From Pyrinomonadaceae bacterium (lineage in GTDB: Bacteria; Acidobacteriota; Blastocatellia; Pyrinomonadales; Pyrinomonadaceae), in assembly GCA_036399835.1 (NCBI GenBank), contig DASWMI010000168.1, positions 15,008 through 79,007 of the forward strand: a stretch of 64,000 nt of DNA, read 5' to 3'. The notes under the pieces are model-generated. The model was not told where the DNA came from and did not search any database. It saw only the letters and a program-made list of their open reading frames with translations. Both the position numbers and the translations under genes were made by a program. Shown here piece by piece: positions 1 through 64,000 of this stretch; position 1 is the first letter of the stretch; the number at the start of each line of letters is the position of its first letter.

Positions 1-676
1 GGTTGATGACATGCCCGTAGAGCCTCAAGATCATGACGCTCAAATGTCTGGCCGTCGCCAGTTCCTTAGACTCCGCAGCCGAAACTTCAGTTCCAAATTC
101 GCGCACGCAGGCGAGCGCGTGTAGAAACTCTGTGCGCGCACGCGCCTGGTGAGCAATCAGTCTGGCCGCGTTGCGGCGATGTATGCAGCGGCCAGCGAGC
201 AAGAGGTCGTCGCCCGTGCGTCCGGCGATGCGGCATAGCTCCAACTCGCGCTGGTCCGGTAAAGCTTCAGGCTCGACTTCCGACGCGGCCATCGTCAGCC
301 CGACATATCTCTCAACGTGGTCGCAGACGATACGAGTCTTTTGCTCCAACTCCTGCGCCCTGAGCCTGCCAGACTGGCGGGCCATCTCCTCTACCTTGTA
401 GAGCGTTTCGATAAGCTTGCGTTTAGCCTGCTCGATCTGCGCGTCGAAGTCTGGCGAAGATGTGTGGTCCATGCCGGTAGTAGTTTTCCAGGCGGGGCGC
501 GAGCGCCAGAGCTTGAGTAGAAACAACGTCGCCGCGCAGGGCCAGAGCAGCATCGCCAGCGTCGCTTTGAAGACGGCCTTCCGTGGTCCTCTACGGTTTC
601 TCCCTGAGAGTAGATCGCTCATGCCAAAGGGCGCTCCGGCTGCCAGATAAATGGTGATGATTTCGCTCGCTCGCAT
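1..676 (-). CDS. hypothetical protein with hydrophobic N-terminal segment (3' end lies beyond window start)
   Basis: Absent from the ORF track because there is no stop inside the window. The reverse frame is open from 769 down to base 1. ATG at 676 (alternatives: ATG 769, ATG 472) gives MRASEIITIYLAAGAPFG...LLWPCAATLFLLKLW, then MDHTSSPDFDAQIEQAKRKLIETLYKVEE... No family recognised. Confidence 0.5.
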   Translation of the reverse strand, partial: MRASEIITIYLAAGAPFGMSDLLSGRNRRGPRKAVFKATLAMLLWPCAATLFLLKLWRSRPAWKTTTGMDHTSSPDFDAQIEQAKRKLIETLYKVEEMARQSGRLRAQELEQKTRIVCDHVERYVGLTMAASEVEPEALPDQRELELCRIAGRTGDDLLLAGRCIHRRNAARLIAHQARARTEFLHALACVREFGTEVSAAESKELATARHLSVMILRLYGHVIN

Positions 677-1344
677 CCTGGCCTTCAGAAATGGCAACGC
701 TTGTGCCAGCGCCGCAAGCGCCGAGCGCGGCTCATCGCGGAAAGTTTTCTTCTGCTTCCGGCAGAACATTTACGGGAAATTTTTCCGGTCCGGACAAGCC
801 CGGCGCGTTTGGGAAAAGCGCTCTCGTCCGCTTGGCAAACCGCCTCTCCAACTTCAGGGTTTGGCATTCTGCAAACTCGCAGGAGAGGGCGACTGGTCCA
901 ACGCCTTGAGGCATGAAGATGAAGTTAATGGGAGCGGGCCATCGAGCGATTGAAGGGACGCGTCATTTCTCTGCTCGCGCGGCGCGGCGTGGGGTGAAGC
1001 GCGGCGGCTCTGCGGGAAGCGCCCAATCCAAACCGTACATCTGGAGTCACCTCTGTATGCAATAAAGCCACAGGTGGCTAATTTCCGAATCCCTTGATGC
1101 TCCTTCGAGGGAGGAAACTTCCTTCGGCTAAAACCATGCGCGCCGCGTCTAATATAGAAAATAAGAAGCGCAAATCCGAGTTCCGGTTTACGTCAGCAGT
1201 TGTGGCCTCCGGTTTGCAGGGATGACGGCGCAAAGGTCAACGGCTGTTTCTGATCGGACCAAAATAAATCGAACTTCGAGACAGCCGATTCGTTAGAGTA
1301 AAGAGATTATTCGAGAAACAATCAAGCAGGGACAGGCAATCATT

Positions 1345-1569
1345 ATGGCTACTAAACCTTCAATCAAAATCATCAAGCGCCGTGAGCGCATAGAGCAGGA
1401 AAACGGGCCTGAACAGGCCGCTGCTACGAAAGAAACGCCGCGCGAAGCCGCCCGCGAAATGGTCGCCACCGTGACCAACTGGGTGAGCGAGTTTCAGCAA
1501 AAGCGGCGCGAGGAAACTTCACGCGCCATCAAGACGCTGTTCGCGGACCAGCAACCGAACGAGGCATAG
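1345..1569 (+). CDS. small hypothetical protein (74 aa, Lys/Arg/Glu-rich)
   Basis: Complete ORF with GC-rich third codon positions. An intrinsic terminator lies about 105 nt downstream. No family recognised. Confidence 0.5.
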   Translation: MATKPSIKIIKRRERIEQENGPEQAAATKETPREAAREMVATVTNWVSEFQQKRREETSRAIKTLFADQQPNEA

Positions 1570-1674
1570 GCTCTCGCAACACATGCGGCGCATAATCCCG
1601 CACCGGAATGAAGCAGATTGCACGCTTTCGTTCTCGCCTAGACCAAAAAGAACAATCACAGACAGGCTACACAA

Positions 1675-1709
1675 AAGGGCGGCCCCAAGAGGTCGCCCTT
1701 AATTGTTTC
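1675..1709 (+). terminator. rho-independent terminator candidate
   Basis: GGGCGGCC (1677-1684) pairs with GGTCGCCC (1691-1698), 8 bp with one G-U, followed by TTAATTGTTT. Confidence 0.6.
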
Positions 1710-1832
1710 TAAAAGTATGGCGAATGCTACGTCTCAAGAGCGGACCTGTCAGGATGTTGACACGGGGCGCGTGGCGGCGATAGCATGGCTGCCAAATCAA
1801 AGCCCTAAGAGAAATGGTATCCGTCAAGCCTC

Positions 1833-2027
1833 ATGAAAACGACCGGACCAAAACGCGGGAAGAAACGCAAGCCTCAGCCTCTCTTTGAGACGATACGCAA
1901 GCCACTGGCGCCGCCCGGCCACCCGCTCGGACGTGACAAGCCGGAAGAGCGCGCGCATCCTTCGCTGCGCAAGGCCAAGCATAAACATCGTCCTGAAAGG
2001 TCCGGAGAGGGGACTGAGGGCGACTGA
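1833..2027 (+). CDS. small highly basic hypothetical protein (64 aa)
   Basis: ORF only. No clear Shine-Dalgarno, and an antisense ORF of similar size overlaps it. Confidence 0.3.
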   Translation: MKTTGPKRGKKRKPQPLFETIRKPLAPPGHPLGRDKPEERAHPSLRKAKHKHRPERSGEGTEGD

Positions 2028-3580: not shown

Positions 3581-3949
3581 GTGGACCAGAGCATGTCGCA
3601 ATCGAGAATAGATATTTTCGCAGAGATGGCGCGCGAGCAGCCGGACAGTGAGATGGTCTGGTACGGGCTGGCTAACGAGTACGTCAAGGCTGAAAGATGG
3701 GGCGAGGCGGCAGATGCCCTGCGTCAGGTCGTCAGCCTGAACCCGGATTATACTGCCGCCTACCAGTTGCTCGGCACGGCCCTCTTTGAACAGGGCGAGA
3801 GCGAGCAGGCGCGCGTTATCTGGGAGCAGGGCCGAGAGGTCGCAGAGCGCACGGGAGCCTGGAAAGCTCGGCAACACATCGAAGGCTTGCTCGCACGGAT
3901 GGATGAAGGGCCGAAGGGTAAGCGGGATTCGGAATTTTGCGAAGAGTGA
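3581..3949 (+). CDS. TPR-repeat protein
   Basis: TPR-like repeats (WYGLANEYVKAERWGEAADALRQVVSLNPDYTAAYQLLGTALFEQGE) with a terminator immediately downstream. Confidence 0.75.
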   Translation: MDQSMSQSRIDIFAEMAREQPDSEMVWYGLANEYVKAERWGEAADALRQVVSLNPDYTAAYQLLGTALFEQGESEQARVIWEQGREVAERTGAWKARQHIEGLLARMDEGPKGKRDSEFCEE

Positions 3950-4107: not shown

Positions 4108-4884
4108 CTACCATTCGTAGGTGCGGCCAGGCTCCATGACGCTCAGTTTCGGAATCTTTAGCTCCTCAAGCTCTTTGATGACCGTTTCGCGGTAGGCCGG
4201 CTTGAGATGGACGGCGAGAATCTCCAGTCCGTTGTGTTTGAGCTTGCCCAGCTCTTTCTGAAGAGAGGCGGGCGTGAAATGCCTTGAGACCTCTGCGAGC
4301 TGGGCCAGCGCGTTGGGGAAGGAAGCTTCAATGAGCAGCGCGTCAACGTGCGCCGCGCCGTTGACCAGCTCCCAGAACTCTTCTGTCTCCGCCGTGTCGG
4401 AGCTGAGAGCGACGGTCGTCTTGCCGTCTGAGATAATCATCCCGACCGTCGGGACGATGTGGTTGACGGCGACGGCAGTAATCTTGAGATGCGCGACCCG
4501 GAATTCGATGCCCGTGCCGAAGGGCACATACTCCATGACGCGGCTTTTGTCGTTGCTCAAATCGGAAAAGCGCGGGTAGACGGTCCAGTTAAAGATGTCG
4601 CGCTCAAGCGTCTCGATGACCTCTTCGGTGGCATGGACGCGGATAGGCTCTTCGAGTGTCCCGAAGAGATCGTCAATAAAGATGGGGAGGGTCGCAACGT
4701 GGTCCATGTGAGGATGCGTGATGATGATGTCGCGCACGCTCTCGCGCTGTTCGTCCGTGAGGGCCATCGCCAGGCTTCCGGCGTCAATCGCCACGCGCTC
4801 GTCTACGAGAAAACACGTCAGGCGCTGCTCCGGTGCGGCGTAGCCCTTTTCATCGAAGGTGCTGGGTAAGAGTTGAATCTTCAC
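4108..4884 (-). CDS. MBL-fold metallo-hydrolase, class II 3',5'-cyclic-nucleotide phosphodiesterase-like
   Basis: HxHxDH motif (THPHMDHV). The overall layout resembles the PDEase_II/MBL family. Confidence 0.8.
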   Translation of the reverse strand: MKIQLLPSTFDEKGYAAPEQRLTCFLVDERVAIDAGSLAMALTDEQRESVRDIIITHPHMDHVATLPIFIDDLFGTLEEPIRVHATEEVIETLERDIFNWTVYPRFSDLSNDKSRVMEYVPFGTGIEFRVAHLKITAVAVNHIVPTVGMIISDGKTTVALSSDTAETEEFWELVNGAAHVDALLIEASFPNALAQLAEVSRHFTPASLQKELGKLKHNGLEILAVHLKPAYRETVIKELEELKIPKLSVMEPGRTYEW

Positions 4885-4975: not shown

Positions 4976-6163
4976 TTAATGCGCGCCCAGGCGCTGGCGC
5001 ATCTCTTGAAGCATTTGCAGATAGGCAGCTTCGCGTTCGAGCGCCTCCTGCGGGTCGCTGATGATACCGCGCGCGACGCGGCTACGATGAAAGGCCAGCT
5101 CGCTCGCCGTCTGATTATACTGCATACGCACGCGCCACACGCCGAAGCCGCCTCTGGTCAGCGCGTTGAAGGACGCGCCCATCCGTCCCCTGACGCTACA
5201 GAGTCGGTGATAGTCGTCCGGCGTGAACAGCCCGCGCTGGAGGTCCGCCATCAAGTGCTCGCGCACGATGCGCCCCTCACGACGCAGGTTAAAGCCTATC
5301 ACGACAAGCGTGGCGATGAAGACAGGGACCATCACTAGAAAGTACATCACCAGAAAGCCTGCGCCGCCGAAGAAGGTCGGCGAGGCATTCCAGATAGCGT
5401 GGAGCATGATTGCCATCAATAGGCCGGCGATGGGCGCGACAAACTTGATGAATTTATTGTTGGTCTGCCTGGACCAGCCGAGACCTATGCCCGTCATGCT
5501 CGTAAAGAGCGGGTGAGAGAAGGGAGCCATCGCGCCGCGCAGAATGAGAGTGCCCGTTAGCCCCGGACCCCCGCCCTGTATCAGAGCCTTGCCGTAATAT
5601 TGGAAATTCTCGGTCATGGCAAAGCCCAGTGCCACCATCCCCGCGTAGACGATGCCGTCCACGATGCCGTCAAATTCATCCTTTCTCCAGAAAAAGAGAA
5701 TAAAGAGGATGAGCGCCTTGGCGCTCTCTTCGACGATGGGCGCGGAGAGCACGGCACCGGCTGCCTCTGCGGCTTCCGAGCTTTGCGTGATGATGGCAAC
5801 GAAGATGGCGACCGCCGTGTTAATGATAAAGGCTATGAAGACGGCCACCATCGCGCCCCAGAAGAAGGCCAACGCCAGCATCCATAAAGGCTCGGATTCG
5901 TAGCGGTCAATCCAGAGCAGCAGCGCGACGTAAATCGGGACGGGAATCATCGCGCAGATCATCCCGACCAGCAGCGCGACTGGACCAGTTTGCGAGCCGA
6001 TGAGCAGCAGCACGATGAGGCCGAGCACCAGACCCGCGAGGATGGCCGCGATGGCGAGCATGACCTTGATGGCGCTGGTTTTCTTGCGCGATTGAAGGGC
6101 TATCCTGGGCGGCGGGTACGCGCCGCCATAATTCTGCACGGGGGAATACTGGTTGTTATACAT
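4976..6163 (-). CDS. PrsW-family intramembrane metalloprotease
   Basis: Polytopic membrane protein with PIVEESAKAL, FAMTENFQY and HAIWN motifs characteristic of PrsW. Confidence 0.85.
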   Translation of the reverse strand: MYNNQYSPVQNYGGAYPPPRIALQSRKKTSAIKVMLAIAAILAGLVLGLIVLLLIGSQTGPVALLVGMICAMIPVPIYVALLLWIDRYESEPLWMLALAFFWGAMVAVFIAFIINTAVAIFVAIITQSSEAAEAAGAVLSAPIVEESAKALILFILFFWRKDEFDGIVDGIVYAGMVALGFAMTENFQYYGKALIQGGGPGLTGTLILRGAMAPFSHPLFTSMTGIGLGWSRQTNNKFIKFVAPIAGLLMAIMLHAIWNASPTFFGGAGFLVMYFLVMVPVFIATLVVIGFNLRREGRIVREHLMADLQRGLFTPDDYHRLCSVRGRMGASFNALTRGGFGVWRVRMQYNQTASELAFHRSRVARGIISDPQEALEREAAYLQMLQEMRQRLGAH

Positions 6164-6350: not shown

Positions 6351-7124
6351 TTAGCGCGCACACGTCTGGGCGCGGCCTCCGTCAATCGAATAGGTCGCCC
6401 CTGTAATCCAGCCCGCGTGCTCCGAGGCCAGAAAGAGAATCAGGTCCGCGACCTCTTCCGGACGCCCGACGCGCCCGATGGGATGCGTCTGCTTCGAGCG
6501 TTCGAGGAAGGCTGCGTAAGCCTCTTCGCTCATCCCGCCGCGCTTGTGTATATCCGTGATGACGACGCCCGGGTTGACCGCGTTGACGCGTATCCCTTTG
6601 GGGGCCAGCTCAAGCGCGGCGCAGCGCGTCAACTGGTCCAGCCCTGCCTTTGAGACGCAATAGGCCAGCACGCCCGGAAACGAGCGCAGTCCGGTTACGC
6701 TTGAGACATTGACGATGTTGCCGCGCGTCCGTTCGAGCTGGGGCACGCATTGCTGCATCAGGTAGAAGGCGGCGCGCAGGTTGACGTTCATCATCGCGTC
6801 CCAGGCATCAAGCCGCGTGTCCTCTATAGTGCCGTTGGAAAGATGGCCCGCAGCGTTGACGAGCACATCAACCCTGCCGAAATTTTCTACAGTCCCGCGC
6901 ACGATTCGCCGCACATCAGCTTCATTCGTGACATCCGCCCTGAGCGAGAGGGACTCCGCGCCAAGCTCTTTAATCTCTTCGGCGACTTCTGCGAGCGCGC
7001 CTTCCTGGCGGCCCACGGCGGCCACGCGTGCGCCAGCCCCCGCCAGACGCAAGGCTGTCGCCCTTCCGATGCCCGAAGTCGCACCCGTCACGAGGGCTAT
7101 CTTACCCGCCAGCTCTTTCTCCAT
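6351..7124 (-). CDS. SDR-family oxidoreductase (FabG-like)
   Basis: TGATSGIGRA Rossmann motif, NAAG, and the catalytic S...YxxxK (YCVSKAG). Confidence 0.9.
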   Translation of the reverse strand: MEKELAGKIALVTGATSGIGRATALRLAGAGARVAAVGRQEGALAEVAEEIKELGAESLSLRADVTNEADVRRIVRGTVENFGRVDVLVNAAGHLSNGTIEDTRLDAWDAMMNVNLRAAFYLMQQCVPQLERTRGNIVNVSSVTGLRSFPGVLAYCVSKAGLDQLTRCAALELAPKGIRVNAVNPGVVITDIHKRGGMSEEAYAAFLERSKQTHPIGRVGRPEEVADLILFLASEHAGWITGATYSIDGGRAQTCAR

Positions 7125-8746: not shown

Positions 8747-8772
8747 TCAGCTTTAGCTTCGAGGATTTAATT

Positions 8773-9837
8773 ATGAAAGCCAGAATATTGCTTATCCTTT
8801 TCATCTTCACCTGTCTGGGAACAGCCTCAACGCTCAGTGCGCAGGAACAATCGCAGCCTGTCATGCAACAAGGCCCGACGGTGGTCATGCCCGCTTCGAT
8901 AGACAATCAGGGCATTAGAAACTATCTGCTCGGACCGGGCGACACCCTGGAGGTGCGTGTCTTCGGGCAACCTGATTTCGGCGGTCAGGCGGATGTGGAC
9001 AGCGCGGGCAATATCAGCCTGCCCTTTATTGACAAGCCGATTCCGGCACAGTGCCGCACGGAAAAAGATGTCTCCAAAGACATTGCCACGGCCTATTCCA
9101 AGTATCTCAAGAATCCCCAGGTCAGCGTGCGCATCATGGGACGCAATAGCCGCCCGCCCGCCATCGTGCATGGCGCTGTCAATTCGCCGGGCCAATTCCA
9201 GATGCAGCGCCGCGTGCGTCTACAGGAAGTGCTGGCACGCGCGGGCGGCGTGACGGAGCGCGCCAACGGCGTCATACAGGTGCTGCACACGGAATCCGTG
9301 ATGTGCCATGAGCCTGGAGAAGTGCCTGAGCCGGAAGCCAGCGTCGCCCTCAGCGACGGCACAAAGATGCCAGCCTTTAAGCTCTACAAGTATGCGGATA
9401 TTCTGACGGGGAATGCGGATGTCAATCCGTATGTCCGACCGGGCGACATCATCAGGGCGATGGAGGCCGAGCCTGTTTACATCACTGGCAGCGTCAATTC
9501 GCCGACCGGCCTCTACCTGCGCGAGCAGATGACTCTGAGCCGCGCCATCGCGATGGTCGGTGGACCAAAGAAAGAGGCCAAGCAGAGCGAGATCATTATC
9601 TATCGCCGGAAGCCCGGCTCGGTCGAGGCCGAGAAGATGGTCGTCAACCTCGCCGCGATTAAAAAGGGGAAGGAGAAGGACGTGCTTCTTCAGGCATACG
9701 ATATTATAGAAGTGCCGGAGGCCGGGATGCTCTCGAAAGAGCGTATCTTCCAGACCATCGCGGGCGGCGTCCTCTCAGGCTTTAGCGGCGTCGGCCAGCT
9801 TGCCACACAGACTTTGCCTCTGCGCGTTATCTACTGA
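8773..9837 (+). CDS. polysaccharide export protein (Wza-like; Poly_export plus SLBB domains)
   Basis: Signal peptide MKARILLILFIFTCLG, LLGPGDTLEVRVFGQPDF (Poly_export) and SLBB-like PGDIIRA / YDIIEVPE. GAGGA lies 7 nt before ATG 8773. Confidence 0.85.
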   Translation: MKARILLILFIFTCLGTASTLSAQEQSQPVMQQGPTVVMPASIDNQGIRNYLLGPGDTLEVRVFGQPDFGGQADVDSAGNISLPFIDKPIPAQCRTEKDVSKDIATAYSKYLKNPQVSVRIMGRNSRPPAIVHGAVNSPGQFQMQRRVRLQEVLARAGGVTERANGVIQVLHTESVMCHEPGEVPEPEASVALSDGTKMPAFKLYKYADILTGNADVNPYVRPGDIIRAMEAEPVYITGSVNSPTGLYLREQMTLSRAIAMVGGPKKEAKQSEIIIYRRKPGSVEAEKMVVNLAAIKKGKEKDVLLQAYDIIEVPEAGMLSKERIFQTIAGGVLSGFSGVGQLATQTLPLRVIY

Positions 9838-22330: not shown

Positions 22331-22516
22331 CTGGTAGCCTTCCGTTGTTCAAGAAACATGAGCCTTTTTAATGGACCGGATTATAACAATGAGTTGGCCC
22401 GCGAGACAGCCCCGAGGATGGGATTGACATCGGAATAGCAGAAATAAAAAGAATCTAAGAAGAAATCAGCGGGCGCTCCGGCGATTGGACCAGAGAGCAG
22501 AGACAAGGAGTTTTTT

Positions 22517-41407: not shown

Positions 41408-41514
41408 ATGAGTAGACGGGCTGCCATCTTGAGTTTCAGAGTTAAGCTGTCTGGACCAATGCAGTAAAGTTCAAGGGGGGTGATGATTCCGGTTTCTCCT
41501 GAGAGCATCGCGGG

Positions 41515-51488: not shown

Positions 51489-51695
51489 AAACAAAAGTCA
51501 GAGAAATCAAAAGTGGCGATTCAATACAGCGAGCAGCACAAGGCTGGACCAGCAACGATGAAGGATAAGCTGGGAAAGATGACTTGCGAGCTTAGGTTGC
51601 TTTTCCTGCCAGCTCATCTGTCCGCGTTTATCGTTGCTCCTTCGTCTCTCTCTGTTAAGAGTCTCTCAGGATTTATTCGACTCAAAGAAAATCTC

Positions 51696-53400: not shown

Positions 53401-55332
53401 ATGCGAAGCACCTTTGCCGGAACTCTCCTGGGAATCATGCTGTGCGCCCAGCTTTCTGTACATACTGAAGCACGCGCCGTGCGCTCCTTTGCGCCGCCGA
53501 CCGTTGCCGCAGCCGCGCCGTCCGTGCTCAAAGTCGAGCCGCCTTCATGGTGGGCCGGGCACAGCATCAACCCTGTGCGTCTGCTCGTGCGCGGCACAAA
53601 TCTGCACGGGGCACGCGTCGCGTCCACGCGCACGGAGATACGGCCCGAAGCTATACTGGTCAATCCGTCGGGGACATATCTCTTCGTCAGCCTGCACATC
53701 AACGCCAATGCTCAACCCGGCGACTATCCTCTGATTTTAGAGACCACCGAAGGCAGGACCAGCATCCCCTTTAGCCTCAACCCGCCGCTCGATGCCGCGA
53801 CCAACTTTCAAGGGATGACGCGCGATGATGTCATCTACCTGATAATGACCGACCGCTTTAGCAACGGCGACACGGCGAATGATGCTCCGGCAGGCTCAAC
53901 CAAAGAGACCAGCGACCGCAGCAATCCGCGCTCTTATCACGGCGGAGATTTTCGCGGCATCATCAATCATCTGCCTTATCTCAAAGACCTCGGCGTGACG
54001 GCCATCTGGCTCACTCCCTGGTACGACAACTGGAACGGCTTCTACAGATGCGAGAAGCCCTGGTGTCCGTACACCTACTATCACGGTTATCACGCGCTGG
54101 ACTATTACGCCGTCGAAGACCACTTCGGCGACCTCGGGACTTTGCGCGAGCTGGTCCAGAAGGCGCACTCTCTGGGTCTCAAGGTGATTCAGGACCAGGT
54201 GGCAAACCACGTCGGCTCGCAGCATGCCTGGACCACAGACCCGCCGCTCGCCGACTGGTTTCACGGCACGCTTCAGAGCCACTTGAAGAACCCTTTTCGT
54301 GGTGACCTGCTGCTCTCGCCGCACGCTGCGGAAGACGAGCGCAGACCCACGCTCGACGGCTGGTTCTCGGACGACCTGCCGGACATGAGTCAGGAAGAGC
54401 CCGAGGTGGCGCGCTACTTGATTCAGAACTCGCTCTGGTGGACGGGCATGACGGGCCTCGACGCGATACGCCAGGACACTATCCAGTACATGCCGCGCTC
54501 CTTCATACGCGAGTTATCAAAGGCGCTTCATCGCCAGTATCCAAGGATGTGGATGGTCGGAGAAGTCTTTGACCGCGACCCCGCGCAGACGGCCTTCTTT
54601 ATCGGCGGGCGCGAGGGTTGGGACGGGATTGATACGGAGCTTGATTCCGTTTTCGATTTTCCGCTCTGGCAAGCCTCGCTCGATGTCTTCAGCCACAGGA
54701 AGCCCGCGCGCACGCTGCGCGACGTGCTCAAATACGATGCTCTTTATTCTGATGCCTCGCGGCTGACGACCATGCTCAGCAATCATGATGTGGACCGGAC
54801 GGTTTCACTCGAAGGCATGACACTCGAAGGAGCTGCGTTGCACACAGCCTTTATGCTCATGGTGAGAGGCACGCCGCAACTCTATTACGGCGACGAGATC
54901 GCTTTGAAAGGCGGGTCCGACCCTGACAATCGTAGAGACTTCCCAGGAGGCTTTCCGGGTGATGCGCGCAGCGCCTTTACCAAAGCCGGACGCACGCCCG
55001 AAGAAGAGCGCATCTACACTGCCGTACGCGACTGGCTACGACTGCGCCGCGAGCACTCCGCCATTCGTCACGGCTCTTTGATTGACCTGGCCTATGACGA
55101 AGACCTTTACGCCTTCGCGCGCAGCGATGCGAGCGAGACTGTCATCATCGCCATCAATCGAGCGGCGACCCCCGCGCAGCTTTCAATCAAAGCTCGCTTG
55201 CTCAATCTGGCCGACGGCGCGCGTCTCTCTCCGCTGCTGGGTGCGCAGGGCAACAGGCCGTTCGTGAATGGAGCTGCGACGGTTTCCGTTCCTCCGCGCA
55301 CGGCTCTGGCTTACAGGGTGCTGAGCCGTTAG
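53401..55332 (+). CDS. GH13 alpha-amylase-family hydrolase with cyclomaltodextrinase-type N-terminal domain
   Basis: Signal peptide at ATG 53401. LKVEPPSWWAGH (Cyc-maltodext_N-like), DRFSNGD, HGGDFRG, GLKVIQDQVANH, DAIRQD, EVF. The track ORF from 53008 overlaps the TPR gene. Confidence 0.9.
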   Translation: MRSTFAGTLLGIMLCAQLSVHTEARAVRSFAPPTVAAAAPSVLKVEPPSWWAGHSINPVRLLVRGTNLHGARVASTRTEIRPEAILVNPSGTYLFVSLHINANAQPGDYPLILETTEGRTSIPFSLNPPLDAATNFQGMTRDDVIYLIMTDRFSNGDTANDAPAGSTKETSDRSNPRSYHGGDFRGIINHLPYLKDLGVTAIWLTPWYDNWNGFYRCEKPWCPYTYYHGYHALDYYAVEDHFGDLGTLRELVQKAHSLGLKVIQDQVANHVGSQHAWTTDPPLADWFHGTLQSHLKNPFRGDLLLSPHAAEDERRPTLDGWFSDDLPDMSQEEPEVARYLIQNSLWWTGMTGLDAIRQDTIQYMPRSFIRELSKALHRQYPRMWMVGEVFDRDPAQTAFFIGGREGWDGIDTELDSVFDFPLWQASLDVFSHRKPARTLRDVLKYDALYSDASRLTTMLSNHDVDRTVSLEGMTLEGAALHTAFMLMVRGTPQLYYGDEIALKGGSDPDNRRDFPGGFPGDARSAFTKAGRTPEEERIYTAVRDWLRLRREHSAIRHGSLIDLAYDEDLYAFARSDASETVIIAINRAATPAQLSIKARLLNLADGARLSPLLGAQGNRPFVNGAATVSVPPRTALAYRVLSR

Positions 55333-55434: not shown

Positions 55435-56985
55435 GTGAGCTTCTCTCGTTCAAGCGGGCTGCTCTTGCATCCGACATCGCTGCCGGGGCCTTTCGGCGTC
55501 GGAGACCTCGGCGACGAGGCATATCGCTTCGCGGATTTTCTCAAAGAGAGCGGGCAGGGTCTCTGGCAGATGTTGCCGCTTGGACCAACGGGCTACGGCA
55601 ATTCACCTTACGCGGGCTTCTCTGCCTTCGCCGGAAACACGCTGCTCATCAGCCCGCACAGGCTGGTTGAAGAGGGTCTGCTTCAGCCTTCAGACATCGC
55701 TAATCCTCCAACCTTCCCCGAAGAGACGGTTGATTACAGCGAGGCTTATAAATTCAAAGACAAGCTTTTGCGCCGCGCTTTCGAGGCGTTTCGCCGGACG
55801 ACGGATACCGGCTTTAAAGCCAACTTCGAGCACTTCTGCCTCCATGCCGCTTCCTGGCTGGATGATTACGCGCTCTATCGTGCGCTCAAAAAAGCTCACG
55901 GCGAGAAATCCTGGACCGATTGGGAGCCGCAGTTTGTCAGACGCGAGGCTGCGGCCCTCGCCTCGGCTCGCCGCGACCTTGAAGAAGAGATCGAAGCGCA
56001 GAAGTTTTACCAGTTTCTCTTTTTCAGGCAATGGTTCGCGCTCAAGGACTACTGCCATGCGCGTGGCATCAGCATCATCGGAGACATCCCCATCTTCGTC
56101 GCCTTCGATTCGGCTGACGTGTGGACCAATCCTGAACAGTTCAAGCTCAGCGAGGACCGCCGTCCGATGGTCGTCGCCGGTGTCCCGCCCGATTACTTTA
56201 GCGCGACGGGGCAGCTCTGGGGCAATCCCATCTACAACTGGGAACAGATGGTCGAGGACGGCTTTCGCTGGTGGATTGCGCGCGTCAGGGCCGCGCTGCA
56301 AACGATTGACATCCTGCGTATAGACCATTTCCGAGGCTTCGCTGCCTGCTGGGAGATTCCCGGCGGCGATGAGACGGCTGTGCGCGGGCGTTGGGTCAGC
56401 GCGCCCGGCAGAGAGTTGTTTAAGGCCATCAGGGAAGCTCTCGGAGAGTTGCCGATTATCGCCGAAGACCTCGGCGTCATCACGCCGGATGTCATCGCGC
56501 TGCGCCAGGAGTTCGACTTTCCAGGGATGAGCATTCTGCAATTCGCCTTTGACGGCGACAATGGCAACAGCAGGTTTCTCCCGCACAATTACAAGCATAA
56601 CTCTGTGGTCTACACGGGGACGCATGACAACGACACGATTGTCGGCTGGTTCAACAGCCACGCCGGCGCAGGCTCTACGCGCACAGCCGAGCAGATCGAG
56701 CGTGAACGCCGTCTCTGCCTGGAATATCTGGGTACGGACGGCAGCCGGATTCACATGGATTTCATACGCGCCGTGCTCGCCTCCGTCGCAGACATCGCGC
56801 TCATCCCCGTGCAAGACCTGCTCGGTCTGGGCACGGAGGCACGCATGAACCTCCCTAACACGACGGAAGGCAACTGGGCCTGGCGATATAAGCAGGGCGC
56901 TCTGACCGAAGAACTGGGCCGGCAGCTGGGAAAGTTAACGGCCCTTTACGGTCGAGCGCACAAGAGAAATGAGCAAGAGGCTTGA
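55435..56985 (+). CDS. malQ: 4-alpha-glucanotransferase (GH77)
   Basis: SSGLLLHPTSLPGPFGVGDLG, full-length MalQ similarity, GTG start. Confidence 0.95.
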   Translation: MSFSRSSGLLLHPTSLPGPFGVGDLGDEAYRFADFLKESGQGLWQMLPLGPTGYGNSPYAGFSAFAGNTLLISPHRLVEEGLLQPSDIANPPTFPEETVDYSEAYKFKDKLLRRAFEAFRRTTDTGFKANFEHFCLHAASWLDDYALYRALKKAHGEKSWTDWEPQFVRREAAALASARRDLEEEIEAQKFYQFLFFRQWFALKDYCHARGISIIGDIPIFVAFDSADVWTNPEQFKLSEDRRPMVVAGVPPDYFSATGQLWGNPIYNWEQMVEDGFRWWIARVRAALQTIDILRIDHFRGFAACWEIPGGDETAVRGRWVSAPGRELFKAIREALGELPIIAEDLGVITPDVIALRQEFDFPGMSILQFAFDGDNGNSRFLPHNYKHNSVVYTGTHDNDTIVGWFNSHAGAGSTRTAEQIERERRLCLEYLGTDGSRIHMDFIRAVLASVADIALIPVQDLLGLGTEARMNLPNTTEGNWAWRYKQGALTEELGRQLGKLTALYGRAHKRNEQEA

Positions 56986-57083
56986 GCAGCGCGGAAGAAA
57001 GAGAAGCTCAGGAGGAGAACTAAAAGGACTGGTCCATCCAGTTCAGGGATGTTCCTTCAGGAATTCTCTATTCGTCTAATGCT

Positions 57084-58985
57084 ATGGACGTGAATCATCT
57101 TAAAAAAATCTTGCGCGGCCTCTTGCTGGTCGGTCTCTTATTTTCCTCGAGGTCGCTGTGCCCGGCCCAGGACAATCCGGCTGTGCTCAAGGTCGAGCCG
57201 CCGAGCTGGTGGGCCAGGCATTCGATTAATCCTGTGCGCGTCATGATTCGCGGGCGCAACCTGAGCGGCGCGCGTGTAGAGGCGGTCGGCGAGGGAATCA
57301 GGACCGGCCTCGTGCGCATCAACGCCGCTGGCAGTTATCTCTTCGTTGACGTACGGATTGAGCCGCAGGCCAAACCGGGCGGGCGCGCTCTGCGCATCAC
57401 GACCGCCGGAGGGATGACGGATGCGCCTTTTGAAATCAACGCGCCCTTGCCGCGCGCGGGTCGCTTTCAGGGCTTCTCCACGGATGATGTCATCTACCTG
57501 ATTATGCCGGATCGTTTTAGCGACGGCGACCCCGCCAATAACGACCCGCCGAAATCGCGCGGCATCTACGACCGCAATAATAAGTTCTATTATCACGGCG
57601 GAGATTTTCGCGGCATCATCAATCATCTGCCTTATCTCAAAGACCTCGGCGTGACGGCCATCTGGCTCACTCCCTGGTACGACAACCACGACCGTCCCAA
57701 CGAGATTGAGCTAAAAGAAGGGAGGCCGAGCACGGGTTTTCACGGCTATAACCCCGTGGACTTCTACGGAGTAGAGGAGCATTTCGGCAGCCTGCAAACT
57801 TTGCGCGAGCTGGTGGATGAAGCGCACAAGGCAGGCATCAAGGTGATTCAAGATAGCGTCATGAATCACACTGGTCCACATCACGCCTGGGTGTCTGACC
57901 AGCCGACGCCAACCTGGTTCAACGGGACGAGAGAACATCACCTGGCGAATGTCTTCGAGACATGGGTACTGCACGACCCGCGCGCCGAAAGCCTCATCAA
58001 GCGCGAGACGATGGAAGGCTGGTTCTTGGACTTTCTGCCCGACCTCAACCAGACGGATGAAGAGACCGCGCGTTATCTGGTCCAGAATACGCTCTGGTGG
58101 ATAGGCATCACCGGCCTCGACGGGATACGCGAGGATACCTGGCAATATGTCCCCAACAGTTTCTGGCGCGACTGGATGGCGGCCATCAAGCGAGAGTATC
58201 CGAGCTTTCGTGTTTTCGGCGAAGTCAAAGACGGCGATGTGGTCCACGTCTCATTCTTTCAGGGAGGGCGCGTGCGCTTTGACGGTGTGGATTCCGGTCT
58301 CGATTCGCTGCTGGATTTCCCGCTCTTTTATAGCTTGCGCCATGCCTTCGCGGAAGGCCGGAGCCTCAAGCAAGTGCCGCAGACGCTCGCCAGAGATTAT
58401 CTCTATACCAATCCGGATATTCTGGTAACGCTGGTCGGCGGGCACGACGACAAACGCTTTATGAGCGAGCCGGGCGCGACCCCGGCAGGCTCTAAGCTGG
58501 CGCACACGCTGATGCTAACGACGCGCGGCGTGCCGCAGCTTTACTATGGCGACGAGATTGCCATGACGGGCGAGGATGAGCCGACGACGCGCAGGGATTT
58601 TCCCGGAGGCTTTCCGGGTGATGCGCGCAACGCCTTTACCAAAGCCGGACGCACGCCCGAAGAACAAAGCCTCTTCGAGCACATACGAAAGCTTGCGCGC
58701 CTGCACGCAGAGCTTGAGCCTTTAAGACGCGGCCAGCTCGTCAATCTGCATGTCACCGAACAGCAATATGCCTATGCGCGAACGACTGCGCGCTCCGCTG
58801 TCATCGTCATTATCAATAATGAGACGAAACCCGCGAGCCTTGCCTTCGACATTGGACCAGCCGGACTGGCGGACGGCGCGACGCTCACGGACCGGCTCGA
58901 AGTGCTTAAAGAGACGCGGATTGAGAACGGCAGGCTGAGAGTGGAGATGCCAGCGCGTTCGGCAAGTATTCTGACGGTCAAATGA
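57084..58985 (+). CDS. GH13 alpha-amylase-family hydrolase, paralog of 53401..55332
   Basis: Same domain order and motifs (LKVEPPSWWARH, DRFSDGD, HGGDFRG, VIQDSVMNH). Confidence 0.9.
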   Translation: MDVNHLKKILRGLLLVGLLFSSRSLCPAQDNPAVLKVEPPSWWARHSINPVRVMIRGRNLSGARVEAVGEGIRTGLVRINAAGSYLFVDVRIEPQAKPGGRALRITTAGGMTDAPFEINAPLPRAGRFQGFSTDDVIYLIMPDRFSDGDPANNDPPKSRGIYDRNNKFYYHGGDFRGIINHLPYLKDLGVTAIWLTPWYDNHDRPNEIELKEGRPSTGFHGYNPVDFYGVEEHFGSLQTLRELVDEAHKAGIKVIQDSVMNHTGPHHAWVSDQPTPTWFNGTREHHLANVFETWVLHDPRAESLIKRETMEGWFLDFLPDLNQTDEETARYLVQNTLWWIGITGLDGIREDTWQYVPNSFWRDWMAAIKREYPSFRVFGEVKDGDVVHVSFFQGGRVRFDGVDSGLDSLLDFPLFYSLRHAFAEGRSLKQVPQTLARDYLYTNPDILVTLVGGHDDKRFMSEPGATPAGSKLAHTLMLTTRGVPQLYYGDEIAMTGEDEPTTRRDFPGGFPGDARNAFTKAGRTPEEQSLFEHIRKLARLHAELEPLRRGQLVNLHVTEQQYAYARTTARSAVIVIINNETKPASLAFDIGPAGLADGATLTDRLEVLKETRIENGRLRVEMPARSASILTVK

Positions 58986-59058
58986 TAGTTCAAGGGGCTG
59001 TCTTTCAAGCTTCGTCTGATTTCATCGCTTTTGTCCGCACCGCTTCAAGGAGGTGGTC

Positions 59059-60492
59059 ATGCAGAAACCACGTTTGAGCTTCTGGCAAATCTGGAACATG
59101 AGCTTTGGCTTTCTGGGGATACAGTTTGGCTGGGGCTTGCAGCTCGCCAACATGAGCGGCATTTATACTTACCTCGGCGCCAGGCCCGAAGAAGTGCCGA
59201 TTCTCTGGCTCGCAGGGCCTGTCACGGGATTGCTGGTCCAGCCCATCATCGGCTCGATGAGCGACCGCACCTGGAATCGCCTGGGCCGCCGCCGTCCATA
59301 CTTTCTGGTTGGCGCCATCCTCTCCAGCATCGCGCTCTTTTTTATGCCGGATTCACCTGCGCTCTGGGTCGCGGCGGGCCTGCTCTGGATTCTGGACGCG
59401 AGCATCAACGTGAGCATGGAGCCTTTCCGAGCTTTCGTCGCTGACAAGCTCAACGTGGACCAGCGCACGGCTGGCTTTGTCATGCAGAGCTTCTTCATAG
59501 GCATCGGGCAGACGCTCGCCAATGCTTTGCCGTACATTTTCAGAAGGGCGGGGGTGGACGAGCGCAGCGTCGCCGCAGCCGAGCGAGCCGTCAACACAAT
59601 TCCTCCGAGCGTCAATTATTCTTTCAAGATAGGGGCGGTGGCCTTTCTGCTCTGTGTGCTCTGGACCGTCTTGACGACCAAGGAATACCCGCCGGAGGAC
59701 ATGGAGGATTTTGAGAGGCGGCGGCGCGAGCATAAAGGGATTGTCGCCGGGTTGCGCGAGATATTCTCGGCCATACGGGAGATGCCTGTGACGATGAAGC
59801 AGCTCGCAGTGGTCCAGTTTTTTACCTGGCTCGGCCTCTTCTGTATGTGGATGTTCTTCGGGCTGATGACCTCTTATCACGTCTTTGGCGCGCAGAGCGA
59901 GCGGGATGCGGCCTTTCGAGACGGGCAGGCGTGGGGCGGCATCTCCTTCGCCGTTTACTCAATCGTCTGCTTTGCCATAGCCTTCGTGCTGCCCGCGCTT
60001 GCCAAACGGACGAGCCGCAAAACGGTGCATGCCATCTCGCTCGTCTGCGGCGGTCTGGGCCTGCTCTCCGTCTATGTGATACATGATAAGTACGGGCTAC
60101 TGCTGGCGATGGTTGGCGTAGGGATAGCGTGGGCATCGATTCTCTCTATGCCTTACGCGATTCTTTCTGGCGCGCTGCCCGCCGCGCGGATGGGTCTCTA
60201 CATGGGAGTCTTCAATTTCTTCATAGTCATCCCGGAGATCATCGCATCCTTTACTTTTGGTCCAGCGATTCGCCTGCTCTTCGGCAGGGACAACCCGAAT
60301 GCGCCGCTCTATGTCGTGATGGCTGGCGGCGCATTTATGCTGCTGGCGGCGGCTTGTGTGGCGATAGTCCGAGATGTCGCGGACAGGCCAGTGCCCGAAC
60401 GGGATGTCATCAGGGCAGACATGCACGAGCCGCTCATCACGCAGCAGTCGGCACAGCCCGTGCCGAGCACAGGGCTGATTGACAAGGAATAA
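59059..60492 (+). CDS. MFS transporter, SLC45/GPH-like sugar:cation symporter
   Basis: 12-TM layout. [17 protein letters not shown] motif typical of SLC45/sucrose-type carriers. AAGGAGG lies before ATG 59059. Confidence 0.9.
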
Positions 60493-60495
60493 CGG

Positions 60496-61998: not shown

Positions 61999-62156
61999 GA
62001 CGGGAGCTAAAACGTCTCTCAATTTAGAAGGCGCGAAGCCAGAGCCGTGCGCCGCTTAGCTGGAGAAAAGTTGATGAAAATCAGCATGCACATCTACCGG
62101 CCATAAACCGGCACTGGCCGACTTTATCCACGCTGGTCCATTCTTTGCCGTCTCTC

Positions 62157-62525
62157 TTACTTGAGCGTCCTCACGGTCTCGACCTTGACGGTCTTGCTTG
62201 AAGCATTCAACTGTCCCGTGATTTTAACGTGACGGCCTTCCTGTCCCTTGAGGGCTTCAGGGTTTTCGACTATCCAGATTCGCTTGTCCCTGTCGGCGAC
62301 GAAGACCATCCTCTGCGGTTTCCATTCGGGATGTCCGATGTCCGCGCCTCCTCTCAGGCATTTTCTGACGCAATCCTCGCGGCCAGCCTTGGTGTGCTCG
62401 GCCCCGCAGGATTCGTCGCTGACCCAGCCGTTCATGCTGAAGGGTTTGCTCGCGGCAGCGGCGGCTGCCATCAAGATACTGGCGATAAGGAGTGGACCAG
62501 CTATCAAGAGAATCGTTTTTCTCAT
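62157..62525 (-). CDS. small secreted Cys-containing hypothetical protein
   Basis: Signal peptide MRKTILLIAGPLLIASILMAAAAA, and four Cys in the mature part. Confidence 0.65.
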   Translation of the reverse strand: MRKTILLIAGPLLIASILMAAAAAASKPFSMNGWVSDESCGAEHTKAGREDCVRKCLRGGADIGHPEWKPQRMVFVADRDKRIWIVENPEALKGQEGRHVKITGQLNASSKTVKVETVRTLK

Positions 62526-62594
62526 GGTATCACCTCGGCCTGACTTTGCTTGGTCGGCCCGAATTGCTTGTGGTGCGCGAAAGCAAATCTCAAA

Positions 62595-63170
62595 TTATTC
62601 GCGCTTGCTCTTGAGCACGGGTGTTGGCCGCAGGCAGGTGCTCTGTGCCCGGCCCCAACTATATGGGAGCACTTCTATACTGAGCAGCCTGTGGCCGCCC
62701 TTAGTGTGATAGACGCGATGCGGTTGGCCTTCAATCAGGACTTCATAAGCCGCCTTCGGGACTTTAATCATATCGCCGTCTTCAAATTTATAGAAATAAG
62801 TATTCTGGCTCGCAGCCGAGGACGACCCGATCATCTCTCTGACCGGAACGCCTTCGATTTGATAAATAACAAAACCTTCGCTCGCCGTTTTGCGCCAGTT
62901 ATAGATGACAAAGGCTGTGAGCGCCAGAGGTATCAGCCCGATTATTAGATAAGGCCAGTTGTCCGCGAGCGAGGCCAGCCCCGCGATGATAAAAATCAAA
63001 CCGATGACGCCGCCCGCAACGGCGCATCCCAAAAAGCTGCGCTGCCACTGCGATTTCTGCCGCTCGCTCAATCTGCCTTCGCGGTTCTCATTCAAGTCGT
63101 CCATCGTAAACTCGCCCGCGACGGTCAACTCCTGTTGATACTGCTGCTCAAGCTCGCTCAGCTCATTCAT
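62595..63170 (-). CDS. hypothetical membrane protein (two TM helices)
   Basis: ORF with central hydrophobic hairpin (GCAVAGGVIGLIFIIAGL...YLIIGLIPLALTAFVIY). Confidence 0.6.
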   Translation of the reverse strand: MNELSELEQQYQQELTVAGEFTMDDLNENREGRLSERQKSQWQRSFLGCAVAGGVIGLIFIIAGLASLADNWPYLIIGLIPLALTAFVIYNWRKTASEGFVIYQIEGVPVREMIGSSSAASQNTYFYKFEDGDMIKVPKAAYEVLIEGQPHRVYHTKGGHRLLSIEVLPYSWGRAQSTCLRPTPVLKSKRE

Positions 63171-63328
63171 GATTGATTCTCCTTCGTCAAACAGAAAAGC
63201 CTTCTCCCGTCTAAACGTCAGTTCGTCAATATCATCCTACGCGACTGTCAAGCAACATCAAGCCATTTTCCCTGCTTCTTTTCCGGTGGCTGCTGGTGGT
63301 TGGTCCTGAAATCTGTTTTAACTATATC

Positions 63329-64000
63329 TTATCCCTTCGCCCGAGGTCTCTTTGATTGTTTGCCTTTGCTCTCGCGTCGCAGTCCTACGAGTTGCATGGC
63401 CCTGGGAATCTCGCTGTTACGCATAAACCAGCGCCAGACGTTGCCGCTGCGCAGGTTCTCCGCGCTCAACAGTGTGATGCCGAGGTCTATGCCGATGACA
63501 TCGGGGTTAACCCAGCCGTTGTTGGGATTGAAGGCGTCGGCGAATCCATAGCGCCCGTAGATGCGCCCGCCAAACTTTTCCCGCATCGTGCGCAGCGCCG
63601 CGAGCGAGATGTCCGGCGTAAACATCAGAGAGCCTGCGGAGGCACAGGGGACGACCGTCCCGTCAATGGCGGGGTCGCGCGGCGGGCCGCCCCAGGCCAC
63701 GTATCCTTTAGCACTATCCGAAGCCGTGATGCCCCAGACGTTTTCCGTGTAGCCCGGAAACTCTTTCCCCAACTCGATACAAAAGGCCCTGTGCGCGCGC
63801 GTCGCGGCAACGGAGTTGGCGAAGTAGTCTATACGTTGGCCCTGCTCTTCGCGACGTCCGCGAAAGTCAACCCAGGCGTGCGCGTACTGGTGCATAAAGA
63901 GCGGGACACCAATGGTCGTGAAATACTGCTGGCCGCCGTAGGTGTAAGCATCACGCCGTAGAGCTTGCCAGGCGCGCGGCTCTATGGCGTGAGTGTGCGA
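63329..64000 (-). CDS. glucoamylase-family / GH144-like (beta-1,2-glucanase-like) protein, 5' end beyond window
   Basis: MHQYAHAWVDFRG...GITASD...YGRYGFADAFNP resembles Pfam Glycoamylase / GH144. The reverse frame stays open from 63895 to 64000. Confidence 0.8.
   Translation of the reverse strand, partial: SHTHAIEPRAWQALRRDAYTYGGQQYFTTIGVPLFMHQYAHAWVDFRGRREEQGQRIDYFANSVAATRAHRAFCIELGKEFPGYTENVWGITASDSAKGYVAWGGPPRDPAIDGTVVPCASAGSLMFTPDISLAALRTMREKFGGRIYGRYGFADAFNPNNGWVNPDVIGIDLGITLLSAENLRSGNVWRWFMRNSEIPRAMQLVGLRRESKGKQSKRPRAKG

Follow-up and report, generated by a model that had tools for sequence, protein, structure and literature searches.

Results

A palindromic heptamer throughout the window

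The window analysed here is the whole of a 64-kb stretch of DNA with a G+C content of 58.6%. It is part of a 108.5 kb soil-metagenome contig (ENA assembly ERZ27253115 k141_37341), of which 79 kb were read. From its open reading frames (ORFs) and their signal of G+C at third codon positions (GC3) we derived a set of 48 genes; these gene calls are heuristic, and about thirty of the window proteins scanned have Pfam support. The genes include purD, an ABC ATPase gene, a gene for a TonB-type receptor and a malQ-like gene, and through them and the DNA between them runs the palindrome TGGWCCA, which is the subject of this work. An exact scan of the plus strand located 82 sites, 46 of them TGGACCA and 36 TGGTCCA. 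This is also the number that a sequence-only reading of the window had counted by eye; 79 of its 82 coordinates were exact and three had slipped (10811 for 10812, 18520 for 18510 and 34360 for 34350). Outside the window, 15 kb of the contig contain 20 further sites, at equal density. The 82 sites of the window are given below with the coding sequence (CDS) and its strand, the codons and the tripeptide encoded; the sites themselves, being palindromic, have no strand.

465..471, in CDS 2-769(-): ATGGACCAC, MDH
894..900, intergenic
3582..3588, in CDS 3581-3949(+): GTGGACCAG, VDQ; overlaps the start codon (GTG-GAC-CAG)
4700..4706, in CDS 4108-4884(-): ATGGACCAC, MDH
5470..5476, in CDS 4976-6163(-): TGGTCCAGG, WSR
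5981..5987, in CDS 4976-6163(-): ACTGGTCCA, TGP
6634..6640, in CDS 6351-7124(-): CTGGACCAG, LDQ
9561..9567, in CDS 8623-9837(+): GGTGGACCA, GGP
10812..10818, in CDS 10484-11263(-): CTGGACCAG, LDQ
15102..15108, in purD CDS 14834-16159(+): GTGGACCAG, VDQ
15831..15837, in purD CDS 14834-16159(+): CTGGACCAA, LDQ
16390..16396, in CDS 16381-17124(+): TGGACCAGG, WTR
17627..17633, in CDS 17251-18087(+): CTGGACCAG, LDQ; relative L003 has CTGGATCAG at the same LDQ
18510..18516, in CDS 18214-20295(-): TGGACCAAC, WTN
19891..19897, in CDS 18214-20295(-): GATGGTCCA, DGP
19953..19959, in CDS 18214-20295(-): TGGACCATT, WTI
20520..20526, in CDS 20460-21386(-): GATGGACCA, DGP
21633..21639, in CDS 21383-22330(-): ATGGTCCAG, MVQ
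22486..22492, intergenic
23273..23279, in CDS 22898-24781(-): AATGGACCA, NGP
24043..24049, in CDS 22898-24781(-): TGGTCCACA, WST
24542..24548, in CDS 22898-24781(-): TCTGGTCCA, SGP
24844..24850, in CDS 24778-25641(-): GTTGGACCA, VGP
25009..25015, in CDS 24778-25641(-): ACTGGTCCA, TGP
27211..27217, in CDS 25638-27437(-): CTGGACCAC, LDH; next site 12 bp away
27223..27229, in CDS 25638-27437(-): CTGGACCAC, LDH
28418..28424, in CDS 27445-31098(-): CTGGTCCAG, LVQ
28493..28499, in CDS 27445-31098(-): GTGGACCAC, VDH
28895..28901, in CDS 27445-31098(-): CTGGTCCAG, LVQ
30060..30066, in CDS 27445-31098(-): TGGACCAGC, WTS
30479..30485, in CDS 27445-31098(-): CTGGTCCAG, LVQ
32079..32085, in ABC ATPase CDS 31966-32706(+): GTTGGACCA, VGP; Walker A region
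33114..33120, in CDS 32741-33487(+): GTGGACCAG, VDQ
34350..34356, in CDS 33956-34708(+): GTGGTCCAC, VVH
34877..34883, in CDS 34708-36561(+): CTGGACCAC, LDH
35497..35503, in CDS 34708-36561(+): TGGTCCAAT, WSN
35766..35772, in CDS 34708-36561(+): TATGGTCCA, YGP
35996..36002, in CDS 34708-36561(+): GTGGACCAG, VDQ
37988..37994, in CDS 36703-40356(+): GTGGACCAC, VDH
38163..38169, in CDS 36703-40356(+): TCTGGACCA, SGP
38329..38335, in CDS 36703-40356(+): TGGACCAGC, WTS
38619..38625, in CDS 36703-40356(+): GCTGGTCCA, AGP
38828..38834, in CDS 36703-40356(+): CTGGTCCAA, LVQ
39015..39021, in CDS 36703-40356(+): ACTGGACCA, TGP
39598..39604, in CDS 36703-40356(+): TGGTCCAGT, WSS
40410..40416, in CDS 40409-41407(+): ATGGACCAC, MDH; overlaps the start codon (ATG-GAC-CAC)
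40765..40771, in CDS 40409-41407(+): ATTGGACCA, IGP
41030..41036, in CDS 40409-41407(+): TGGACCATC, WTI
41452..41458, intergenic
41720..41726, in CDS 41515-42348(+): GTGGACCAC, VDH
41929..41935, in CDS 41515-42348(+): TGGTCCAAA, WSK
42305..42311, in CDS 41515-42348(+): CTGGACCAC, LDH
43134..43140, in CDS 42453-44351(+): TGGTCCACC, WST
43988..43994, in CDS 42453-44351(+): GCTGGTCCA, AGP
45696..45702, in CDS 44348-46216(+): GTGGACCAG, VDQ
47533..47539, in TonB-type receptor CDS 46595-50188(+): GGTGGACCA, GGP
47752..47758, in CDS 46595-50188(+): AATGGACCA, NGP
47955..47961, in CDS 46595-50188(+): CTGGACCAC, LDH
48987..48993, in CDS 46595-50188(+): GTGGACCAG, VDQ
49525..49531, in CDS 46595-50188(+): TATGGACCA, YGP
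49652..49658, in CDS 46595-50188(+): TGGTCCAGG, WSR
49750..49756, in CDS 46595-50188(+): AATGGTCCA, NGP
50646..50652, in CDS 50370-51488(+): TGGTCCATT, WSI
51545..51551, in CDS 51513-53378(+): GCTGGACCA, AGP
51970..51976, in CDS 51513-53378(+): CTGGACCAG, LDQ
52336..52342, in CDS 51513-53378(+): CTGGACCAG, LDQ
52756..52762, in CDS 51513-53378(+): CTGGTCCAG, LVQ
54152..54158, in CDS 53401-55332(+): CTGGTCCAG, LVQ
54229..54235, in CDS 53401-55332(+): TGGACCACA, WTT
55581..55587, in malQ-like CDS 55435-56985(+): CTTGGACCA, LGP
56122..56128, in malQ-like CDS 55435-56985(+): TGGACCAAT, WTN
57030..57036, intergenic
57872..57878, in CDS 57084-58985(+): ACTGGTCCA, TGP
58078..58084, in CDS 57084-58985(+): CTGGTCCAG, LVQ
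58240..58246, in CDS 57084-58985(+): GTGGTCCAC, VVH
58853..58859, in CDS 57084-58985(+): ATTGGACCA, IGP
59234..59240, in CDS 59053-60492(+): CTGGTCCAG, LVQ
59456..59462, in CDS 59053-60492(+): GTGGACCAG, VDQ
59810..59816, in CDS 59053-60492(+): GTGGTCCAG, VVQ
60258..60264, in CDS 59053-60492(+): TTTGGTCCA, FGP
62134..62140, intergenic
62493..62499, in CDS 62157-62525(-): GCTGGTCCA, AGP

Excess of TGGWCCA over its expectation

The 82 sites stand against 8.4 expected from base composition, 4.2 from a first-order and 13.1 from a third-order Markov model, and 4.25 +/- 2.0 (maximum 12) in dinucleotide shuffles. Shuffling the order of codons within genes gave 13.3 +/- 2.8 sites, and shuffling synonymous codons with the proteins and the codon usage of each gene preserved gave 19.7 +/- 3.1. 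The latter null is a conservative one, as the codons that are shuffled already include an excess due to TGGWCCA. Depending on the null chosen the excess is 4-fold to 19-fold, and the strong enrichment claimed from the letters persists under five nulls (82 against 4-20), including those that preserve dinucleotides or codons. In coding DNA alone, 77 sites were observed where codon-order and synonymous shuffles predict 8.5 and 15.1, respectively. Comparison with all other 7-mers of the window placed TGGACCA and TGGTCCA at ranks 1 and 2, both in the Markov test and in the synonymous-shuffle test. A maximal-order Markov model expects 69.5 sites, but only because the hexamers TGGWCC and GGWCCA are enriched themselves (252 against ~90, 2.7-fold).

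T..A is the commonest of the 16 flank pairs of GGWCC, by a factor of three: both T/A flanks are present at 82 GGWCC, one at 88 and neither at 57. The earlier estimate of about 58 single-flank sites, fewer than the full palindrome, was too low, as the true figure lies slightly above 82. Extension of the motif by flanking C/G is weak, with 20 full CTGGWCCAG 9-mers. The spacing of the sites is random (coefficient of variation (CV) 0.94 against 0.99 +/- 0.11 for the null), two sites being only 12 bp apart, and a search for regular spacing within the 64-kb window found none.

The cause acts on DNA

The coding sites are distributed over all three phases, 36 as xTG-GWC-CAx, 25 as xxT-GGW-CCA and 16 as TGG-WCC-Axx, and over both sense orientations. 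Five more lie in the 7 kb of intergenic DNA, for which dinucleotide shuffles give 0.44 +/- 0.69. Occurrence in every phase and between genes had been proposed in the sequence-only reading and is borne out; all 13 X-Gly-Pro sites that it quoted are correct as well, although their number is 25, not 17.

Where the protein permits the motif, it is usually there. In the window TGGWCCA is carried by 36 of the 38 [LMV][DV][HQ] tripeptides (94%), by 16 of the 19 W[TS]x tripeptides in which x has an A-initial codon (84%) and by 25 of the 60 x-Gly-Pro (35-42%). The same three classes are filled to 9%, 15% and 1% in relatives of similar composition that are neutral for the motif (see below), and two enriched clades have ~40-60% of compatible positions filled. 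The codons GGA, GGT and CCA make up 13%, 9% and 8% of Gly/Pro codons elsewhere and 42%, 23% and 48% inside Gly-Pro. The earlier argument from rare AT-ending codons is therefore sound: they are recruited only within Gly-Pro. Because the excess survives synonymous shuffles, occupies all three phases, extends to intergenic DNA and makes use of rare codons, its cause acts on DNA and not on protein, as had been suggested. A modest reshaping of protein sequence goes with the enrichment, motif-compatible tripeptides being 1.5-1.7 times as frequent in the window as in residue-shuffled proteins, against 0.66 in relatives that avoid GGWCC. TGGWCCA is under a lineage-specific positive pressure on DNA itself, which works on each site separately and fills nearly every position that the protein permits, together with intergenic DNA.

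Relatives are enriched in the motif, devoid of its core or neutral

Relatives were sampled around two genes as loci of ~20 kb, PurD loci coming from species-representative genomes and TonB-type receptor loci from soil metagenomes. The PurD loci place the window in the Pyrinomonadaceae (Blastocatellia, Acidobacteriota), with a best identity of 74-75%. The relatives occur in three states: TGGWCCA enriched (0.5-1.25 per kb), GGWCC nearly absent (0-8 per 21 kb, against 20-40 in neutral relatives) and neutral. The enriched state was found in a coherent clade of PurD loci (L040, L045, L048, L051, L054, L056, L060 and L068) and in a large group of JGI soil contigs (L087-L100, L116, L132 and L156) with 80-97% identity among their receptor proteins. 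GGWCC is nearly absent from L003-L006, L008, L013, L016, L033, L044, L085, L099, L102, L105, L118 and L148, which implies that AvaII/SinI-type restriction systems are probably widespread in the Pyrinomonadaceae. Two of these avoiders, L005 and L013, still have 10-12 TGGSCCA per 21 kb, ~3 times expectation.

In a single-gene PurD neighbour-joining tree, to be read cautiously, the window nests among the GGWCC avoiders. Its closest relative with a long locus, L003 (74-88% protein identity), has one GGWCC in 21 kb and, at a conserved LDQ, uses CTGGATCAG in place of the CTGGACCAG of the window. On this tree the identical 7-mer appears to be enriched in at least two separate clades, beside lineages that erase its core, and such a patchy phylogeny fits a mobile determinant. 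In L046, L053, L051 and L043, relatives of the enriched PurD clade, TGGCCCA equals or outnumbers the W form; in L046 it is the top 7-mer (12 against 2.0 expected). These relatives may use 'dialects' of the motif.

We compared the sequences neighbouring the motif in pooled coding DNA of enriched (273 kb) and neutral (272 kb) relatives. The former contain 245 TGGWCCA where 36-48 are expected, the latter have a ratio of observed to expected (O/E) of 0.64. In the enriched pool GGWCC in other flank contexts has an O/E of 0.1-0.6 and one-off variants of the core 0.5-1.4. Relative to the neutral pool, the motif is ~10 times as frequent, GGWCC lacking both correct flanks is reduced 2- to 3-fold and GGGWCCA 5-fold, and variants of the core differ little. 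In the window, flank variants A and C have an O/E of 1.6-1.8. It looks as though sequences containing GGWCC flow into the T..A context. Elhai described the same pattern, for the core CGATCG and the flanks G..C, in HIP1, the highly iterated palindrome (HIP) of cyanobacteria (PMC4390886). Deamination of methylated CGGWCCG was considered as a source of TGGWCCA and rejected, because precursors are too few, half-converted sites show no excess and depletion extends to the A and G flanks.

Conservation of the motif between orthologues defines the recognised unit

Conservation was measured in 484 reciprocal-best orthologue pairs of the enriched soil clade (clade B), pairs that are phylogenetically non-independent. 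At a 4-fold identity of 0.4-0.6, TGGWCCA was retained in 61-69% of cases, whereas control 7-mers of matching phase were retained in 19-24%. For phase-2 sites at a 4-fold identity of 0.4-0.5, near synonymous saturation, the figures are 61% and 19%. Within the 0.4-0.6 range, T1 was kept in 83% (control NNT codons, 35%) and A7 in 78% (control CCA codons, 27%). The central W changed to C or G in 14%, against 46% in controls, and A/T swaps at this position took place at the neutral rate (21% against 18%). Since T1 and A7 are held, changes of W to S are rare and A/T swaps are neutral, the unit is TGG-W-CCA, its centre being genuinely degenerate, which is what one would expect if it were recognised by a dimeric protein of the GGWCC class. 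The pressure keeps T1, G2, G3, C5, C6 and A7 in place, whereas A and T are interchangeable at the centre.

A codon alignment of the receptor gives the same picture at single sites. At conserved Gly-Pro the enriched genomes have NNT-GGW-CCA, and their sisters have other synonymous codons in the same columns.

Other avoided sequences and gene content

The MscI/BalI site TGGCCA is absent from the window (0 against 24.6 +/- 4.5 in codon-aware shuffles) and from 15 kb of contig extensions (L162 and L163). A link between this absence and the TGGWCCA excess was considered and rejected: TGGCCA counts do not track TGGWCCA enrichment among relatives, several of which also lack TGGCCA, so that we treat its absence as an independent signal of restriction avoidance. 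Also avoided in the window are GATC (72 against 341), CTAG (18 against 153), CCATGG (1 against 11-17), the PpuMI site RGGWCCY (6 against ~29) and GGGWCCC (0 against 5-6), and no copy was found of CTGCAG, GAGCTC, CAATTG, GGATCC, CCTAGG, GGTACC or CATATG, for which expectations range from 4 to 36. As GATC is normal in the enriched soil clade (L087 and others), these avoidance signatures are lineage-specific. In L042, a high-GC Pyrinomonadaceae locus of ~15 kb, the overlapping 7-mers GACAGTA, ACAGTAG and AGTAGAC occur 19-21 times against ~0.5 expected, which is another repeat family or array. Clustered TGGWCCA in IMG/VR viral loci (L165-L282) lie in low-GC, GGWCC-rich tracts (80-130 GGWCC per 6-13 kb), which we took, untranslated, to be collagen-like Gly-X-Y repeats and set aside as unrelated.

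The genes of the window include three paralogous clusters, at 25638-31098(-), 34708-40356(+) and 42453-46216(+), that encode large secreted-type proteins of 1217, 1217, 632, 622, 599 and 617 amino acids with FG-GAP/VCBS repeats, an ASPIC/UnbV domain and N-terminal tetratricopeptide (TPR) repeats. The receptor at 46595-50188 is a TonB-type outer-membrane receptor with a CarboxypepD_reg domain. An alpha-glucan utilisation cluster at 53401-61998 comprises two cyclomaltodextrinase-like amylases, a 4-alpha-glucanotransferase (GH77), a major facilitator superfamily (MFS) transporter and one more alpha-amylase; outside the window, the next genes of the contig (L162) are for GH3, a glycoamylase and a further TonB-type receptor. 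CDS 4108-4884(-) has a metallo-beta-lactamase fold with precomputed Pfam matches to Anti-Pycsar Apyc1 (PF23023) and class-II cAMP phosphodiesterase; it is chromosomal and adjoins a PrsW protease gene. One look-up of the window protein 2096-2599 returned no record.

Discussion

The origin and function of HIP1 have been debated for the more than 30 years that it has been known, with a methylation-directed repair ratchet, a role in chromosome structure and an uptake signal as the proposals. The resemblance to HIP1 (GCGATCGC) noted in the first reading of the window stands up to the present analysis. Both motifs are hyper-abundant, short, GC-rich palindromes, present about once per kb in all frames and in non-coding DNA, and both consist of a methyltransferase-site core (CGATCG or GGWCC) with one flanking pair per side. 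They also have in common that most deviations of one-off variants fall at the flanks, that orthologues retain sites more often than conservation of codons predicts and that related genomes include scattered exceptions. TGGWCCA differs from HIP1 in its sequence, odd length, degenerate centre and phylum, Acidobacteriota. Its enrichment is 4- to 19-fold, compared with 15- to 300-fold for HIP1, and a methyltransferase for it is putative, whereas cognate methyltransferases of HIP1 are known. For HIP1 a periodicity of 10-90 kb is reported (Xu et al. 2018); within the 64-kb window, which is too short for this range, the spacing of TGGWCCA is random. A purge of the core by sister lineages, as seen here, is undescribed for HIP1.

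Alternate HIPs have been described within the cyanobacteria: a GGCGCC type in Calothrix, GCSGC in Cyanothece PCC 7822 and RCCGGY in Oscillatoria PCC 10802 (PMC4390886). Like TGGWCCA they are sporadic, lineage-specific excesses of a palindrome, odd-length degenerate sites included, and they co-occur with a methyltransferase of that specificity (PMC4390886). They belong to single genomes in a phylum that bears HIP1, whereas TGGWCCA is shared across entire clades of soil Acidobacteriota and found again in separate ones.

The best explanation, plausible though held tentatively, is that TGGWCCA is a methylation-linked HIP-type palindrome of the Pyrinomonadaceae lineage, tied to a factor that recognises (T)GGWCC(A). 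This agent would be a dimeric, sequence-specific protein; the likeliest candidate is a DNA methyltransferase that is horizontally mobile and belongs to the specificity class of AvaII/SinI (GGWCC). In the sister lineages the same class of methyltransferase would be paired with a restriction enzyme, leading to the purge of GGWCC, and the existence of such lineages suggests, though indirectly, the link to a methyltransferase. The Nanomotif supplementary tables list GGWCC (M.AvaII, 5-methylcytosine on the inner C) and do not list TGGWCCA. By analogy with HIP1, for which methylation-misdirected mismatch repair is a proposed route of accumulation (PMC4390886), new methylatable sites might escape or misdirect post-replicative mismatch repair, so that a one-way ratchet would operate mainly on the flanks of GGWCC. 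Methylated sites might also, or instead, promote the uptake of DNA from the own species and its recombination: transformation is increased by methylated HIP1 (bioRxiv 10.1101/2024.09.10.611283), and HIP1 has been put forward as a signal for uptake (bioRxiv 10.64898/2026.06.24.733823). That the sites are close to saturation and randomly spaced speaks for a site-by-site process rather than for functions that call for one site per fragment or for regular spacing. A wider proposal is that TGGWCCA is a second, independently evolved HIP-type system, in which a mobile (T)GGWCC(A) methyltransferase marks own DNA, a site-autonomous drive, by methylation-misdirected mismatch repair or by methylation-dependent uptake and recombination, writes the mark wherever synonymous codons allow it and restriction-competent sister lineages erase the core; taken as a whole this is rather doubtful, though possible.

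Several observations weigh against a methylation-linked palindrome. The 79 kb of contig read contain no methyltransferase, Vsr or restriction gene, so that we infer the methylation link, and a methylase/Vsr motif regular expression gave no match over 2.24 Mb of fetched loci; for a genome of ~5 Mb, these negatives carry no information. The literature searched contains no enzyme with TGGWCCA specificity. Counting all GGWCC of the window gives no more than 1.4-1.5 times the expected number, so that the unit is more than the core. TGGSCCA shows ~2-fold enrichment both here and in the enriched relatives, but none in neutral ones, which a strict GGWCC enzyme would not predict. The ratchet model is unproven even for HIP1, and it does not obviously account for the preference for T/A flanks. 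Finally, the orthologue retention of 61-69% is only modestly above the saturation level of ~47%. Because about half of the compatible positions carry the motif anyway, retention demonstrates a sustained pressure and cannot separate selection from drive; positional conservation, which we had considered as proof of selection, is weakened accordingly.

Alternatively, selection might favour TGGWCCA as the target to which an abundant protein without methylating activity binds, for instance one that is nucleoid-associated, that acts in segregation or that serves defence as a 'self-marker', with weak purifying selection on each site. For a dimer a palindromic 7-mer would be a fitting target, T1, A7 and the central W are conserved although A/T swaps are neutral, coding and intergenic DNA are both enriched, and Xu et al. 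2018 argue for a role of HIP1 in chromosome structure (PMC5861425). We consider this unlikely, given that the sites are randomly spaced, down to a pair 12 bp apart, that a fill of 94% exceeds what a distribution-level function needs, and that the same 7-mer in separate clades, with its core purged by sisters, points to a specificity of restriction-modification type.

An uptake or recombination signal, spread by preferential uptake and recombination, in natural transformation, of own-species DNA that bears the motif, methylated or not, is equally improbable. The DNA uptake sequences (DUS) of Neisseria and uptake signal sequences (USS) of Pasteurellaceae resemble TGGWCCA in density (~1.3 per kb here), in their presence in all frames, in lineage-specific 'dialects' (here TGGCCCA) and in their mild shaping of proteins (compatible tripeptides at O/E 1.5-1.7), and even HIP1 itself is now proposed to be an uptake signal, as cited above. 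Known uptake signals are, however, non-palindromic 9-12-mers with a known or inferred receptor, and their compatible positions are unsaturated; a drive acting per fragment should level off long before a fill of 94%. Chi-like hotspots are strand-skewed and have an orientation, which no palindrome can have.

A footprint of very-short-patch (Vsr) repair, coupled to a 5-methylcytosine methyltransferase of GGWCC, was the idea first attached to the motif; it is now largely refuted and must be regarded as very improbable. GGWCC is indeed the AvaII/SinI site with a methylated inner C (Nanomotif supplement), and the Dcm/Vsr footprint of E. coli (CCWGG) is likewise a methylation-linked bias that raises a 5-bp degenerate palindrome. 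That effect is weak and depletes the neighbours derived from T:G. In the window TGAWCCA/TGGWTCA did look depleted (5 against 13-17 expected), but the deficit is confined to the form that contains GATC (0 against 7.5), the GATC-free form being at expectation (5 against 5.0), and is due to the avoidance of GATC throughout the window. In the 273 kb of enriched relatives TGGWTCA/TGAWCCA has an O/E of 1.0-1.1, so that the depletion predicted for Vsr is absent. Moreover, the T:A flanks carry most of the signal, and repair of T:G to C:G cannot create them.

Restriction-site avoidance, for example of the AvaII site GGWCC in Anabaena, involves the same pentamer core and is seen in the nearest relatives of the window, but TGGWCCA is opposite in sign, being enriched when flanked by T/A. 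That the motif is a by-product of avoiding other GGWCC contexts (such as the PpuMI-like RGGWCCY, 6 against ~29, or GGGWCC, very rare, in a genome that avoids many other palindromes) or of codon, dipeptide or compositional bias is refuted, as avoidance can neither shift the preferred GGC-CCG to T-GGW-CCA in 42% of Gly-Pro nor fill 94% of [LMV][DV][HQ], shuffles give 13-20 sites against 82, and neutral relatives of similar composition have an O/E of 0.64.

In the literature searched, the string TGGWCCA appears in one paper only, as an oomycete promoter motif, and nothing was found on the phenomenon described here. HIP-type palindromes have been described for cyanobacteria, and TGGWCCA is one that is new in both sequence and phylum. 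An unrelated phylum with a hyper-abundant palindrome of its own, built in the same way from a methyltransferase-type core and a flanking pair, provides a replicate for HIP1. For the Pyrinomonadaceae, the motif is a practical marker for binning and host assignment of their DNA in soil metagenomes. It also shows that a pressure at the level of DNA can prevail over codon preference at thousands of sites and alter proteins to a small degree. The contrast among close relatives, in which the motif is written to near-saturation, erased or neutral, is sharper than in cyanobacteria. If TGGWCCA is a second HIP-type system, as in the wider proposal above, the presence of these three states within one family could settle the origin of HIP-type motifs.

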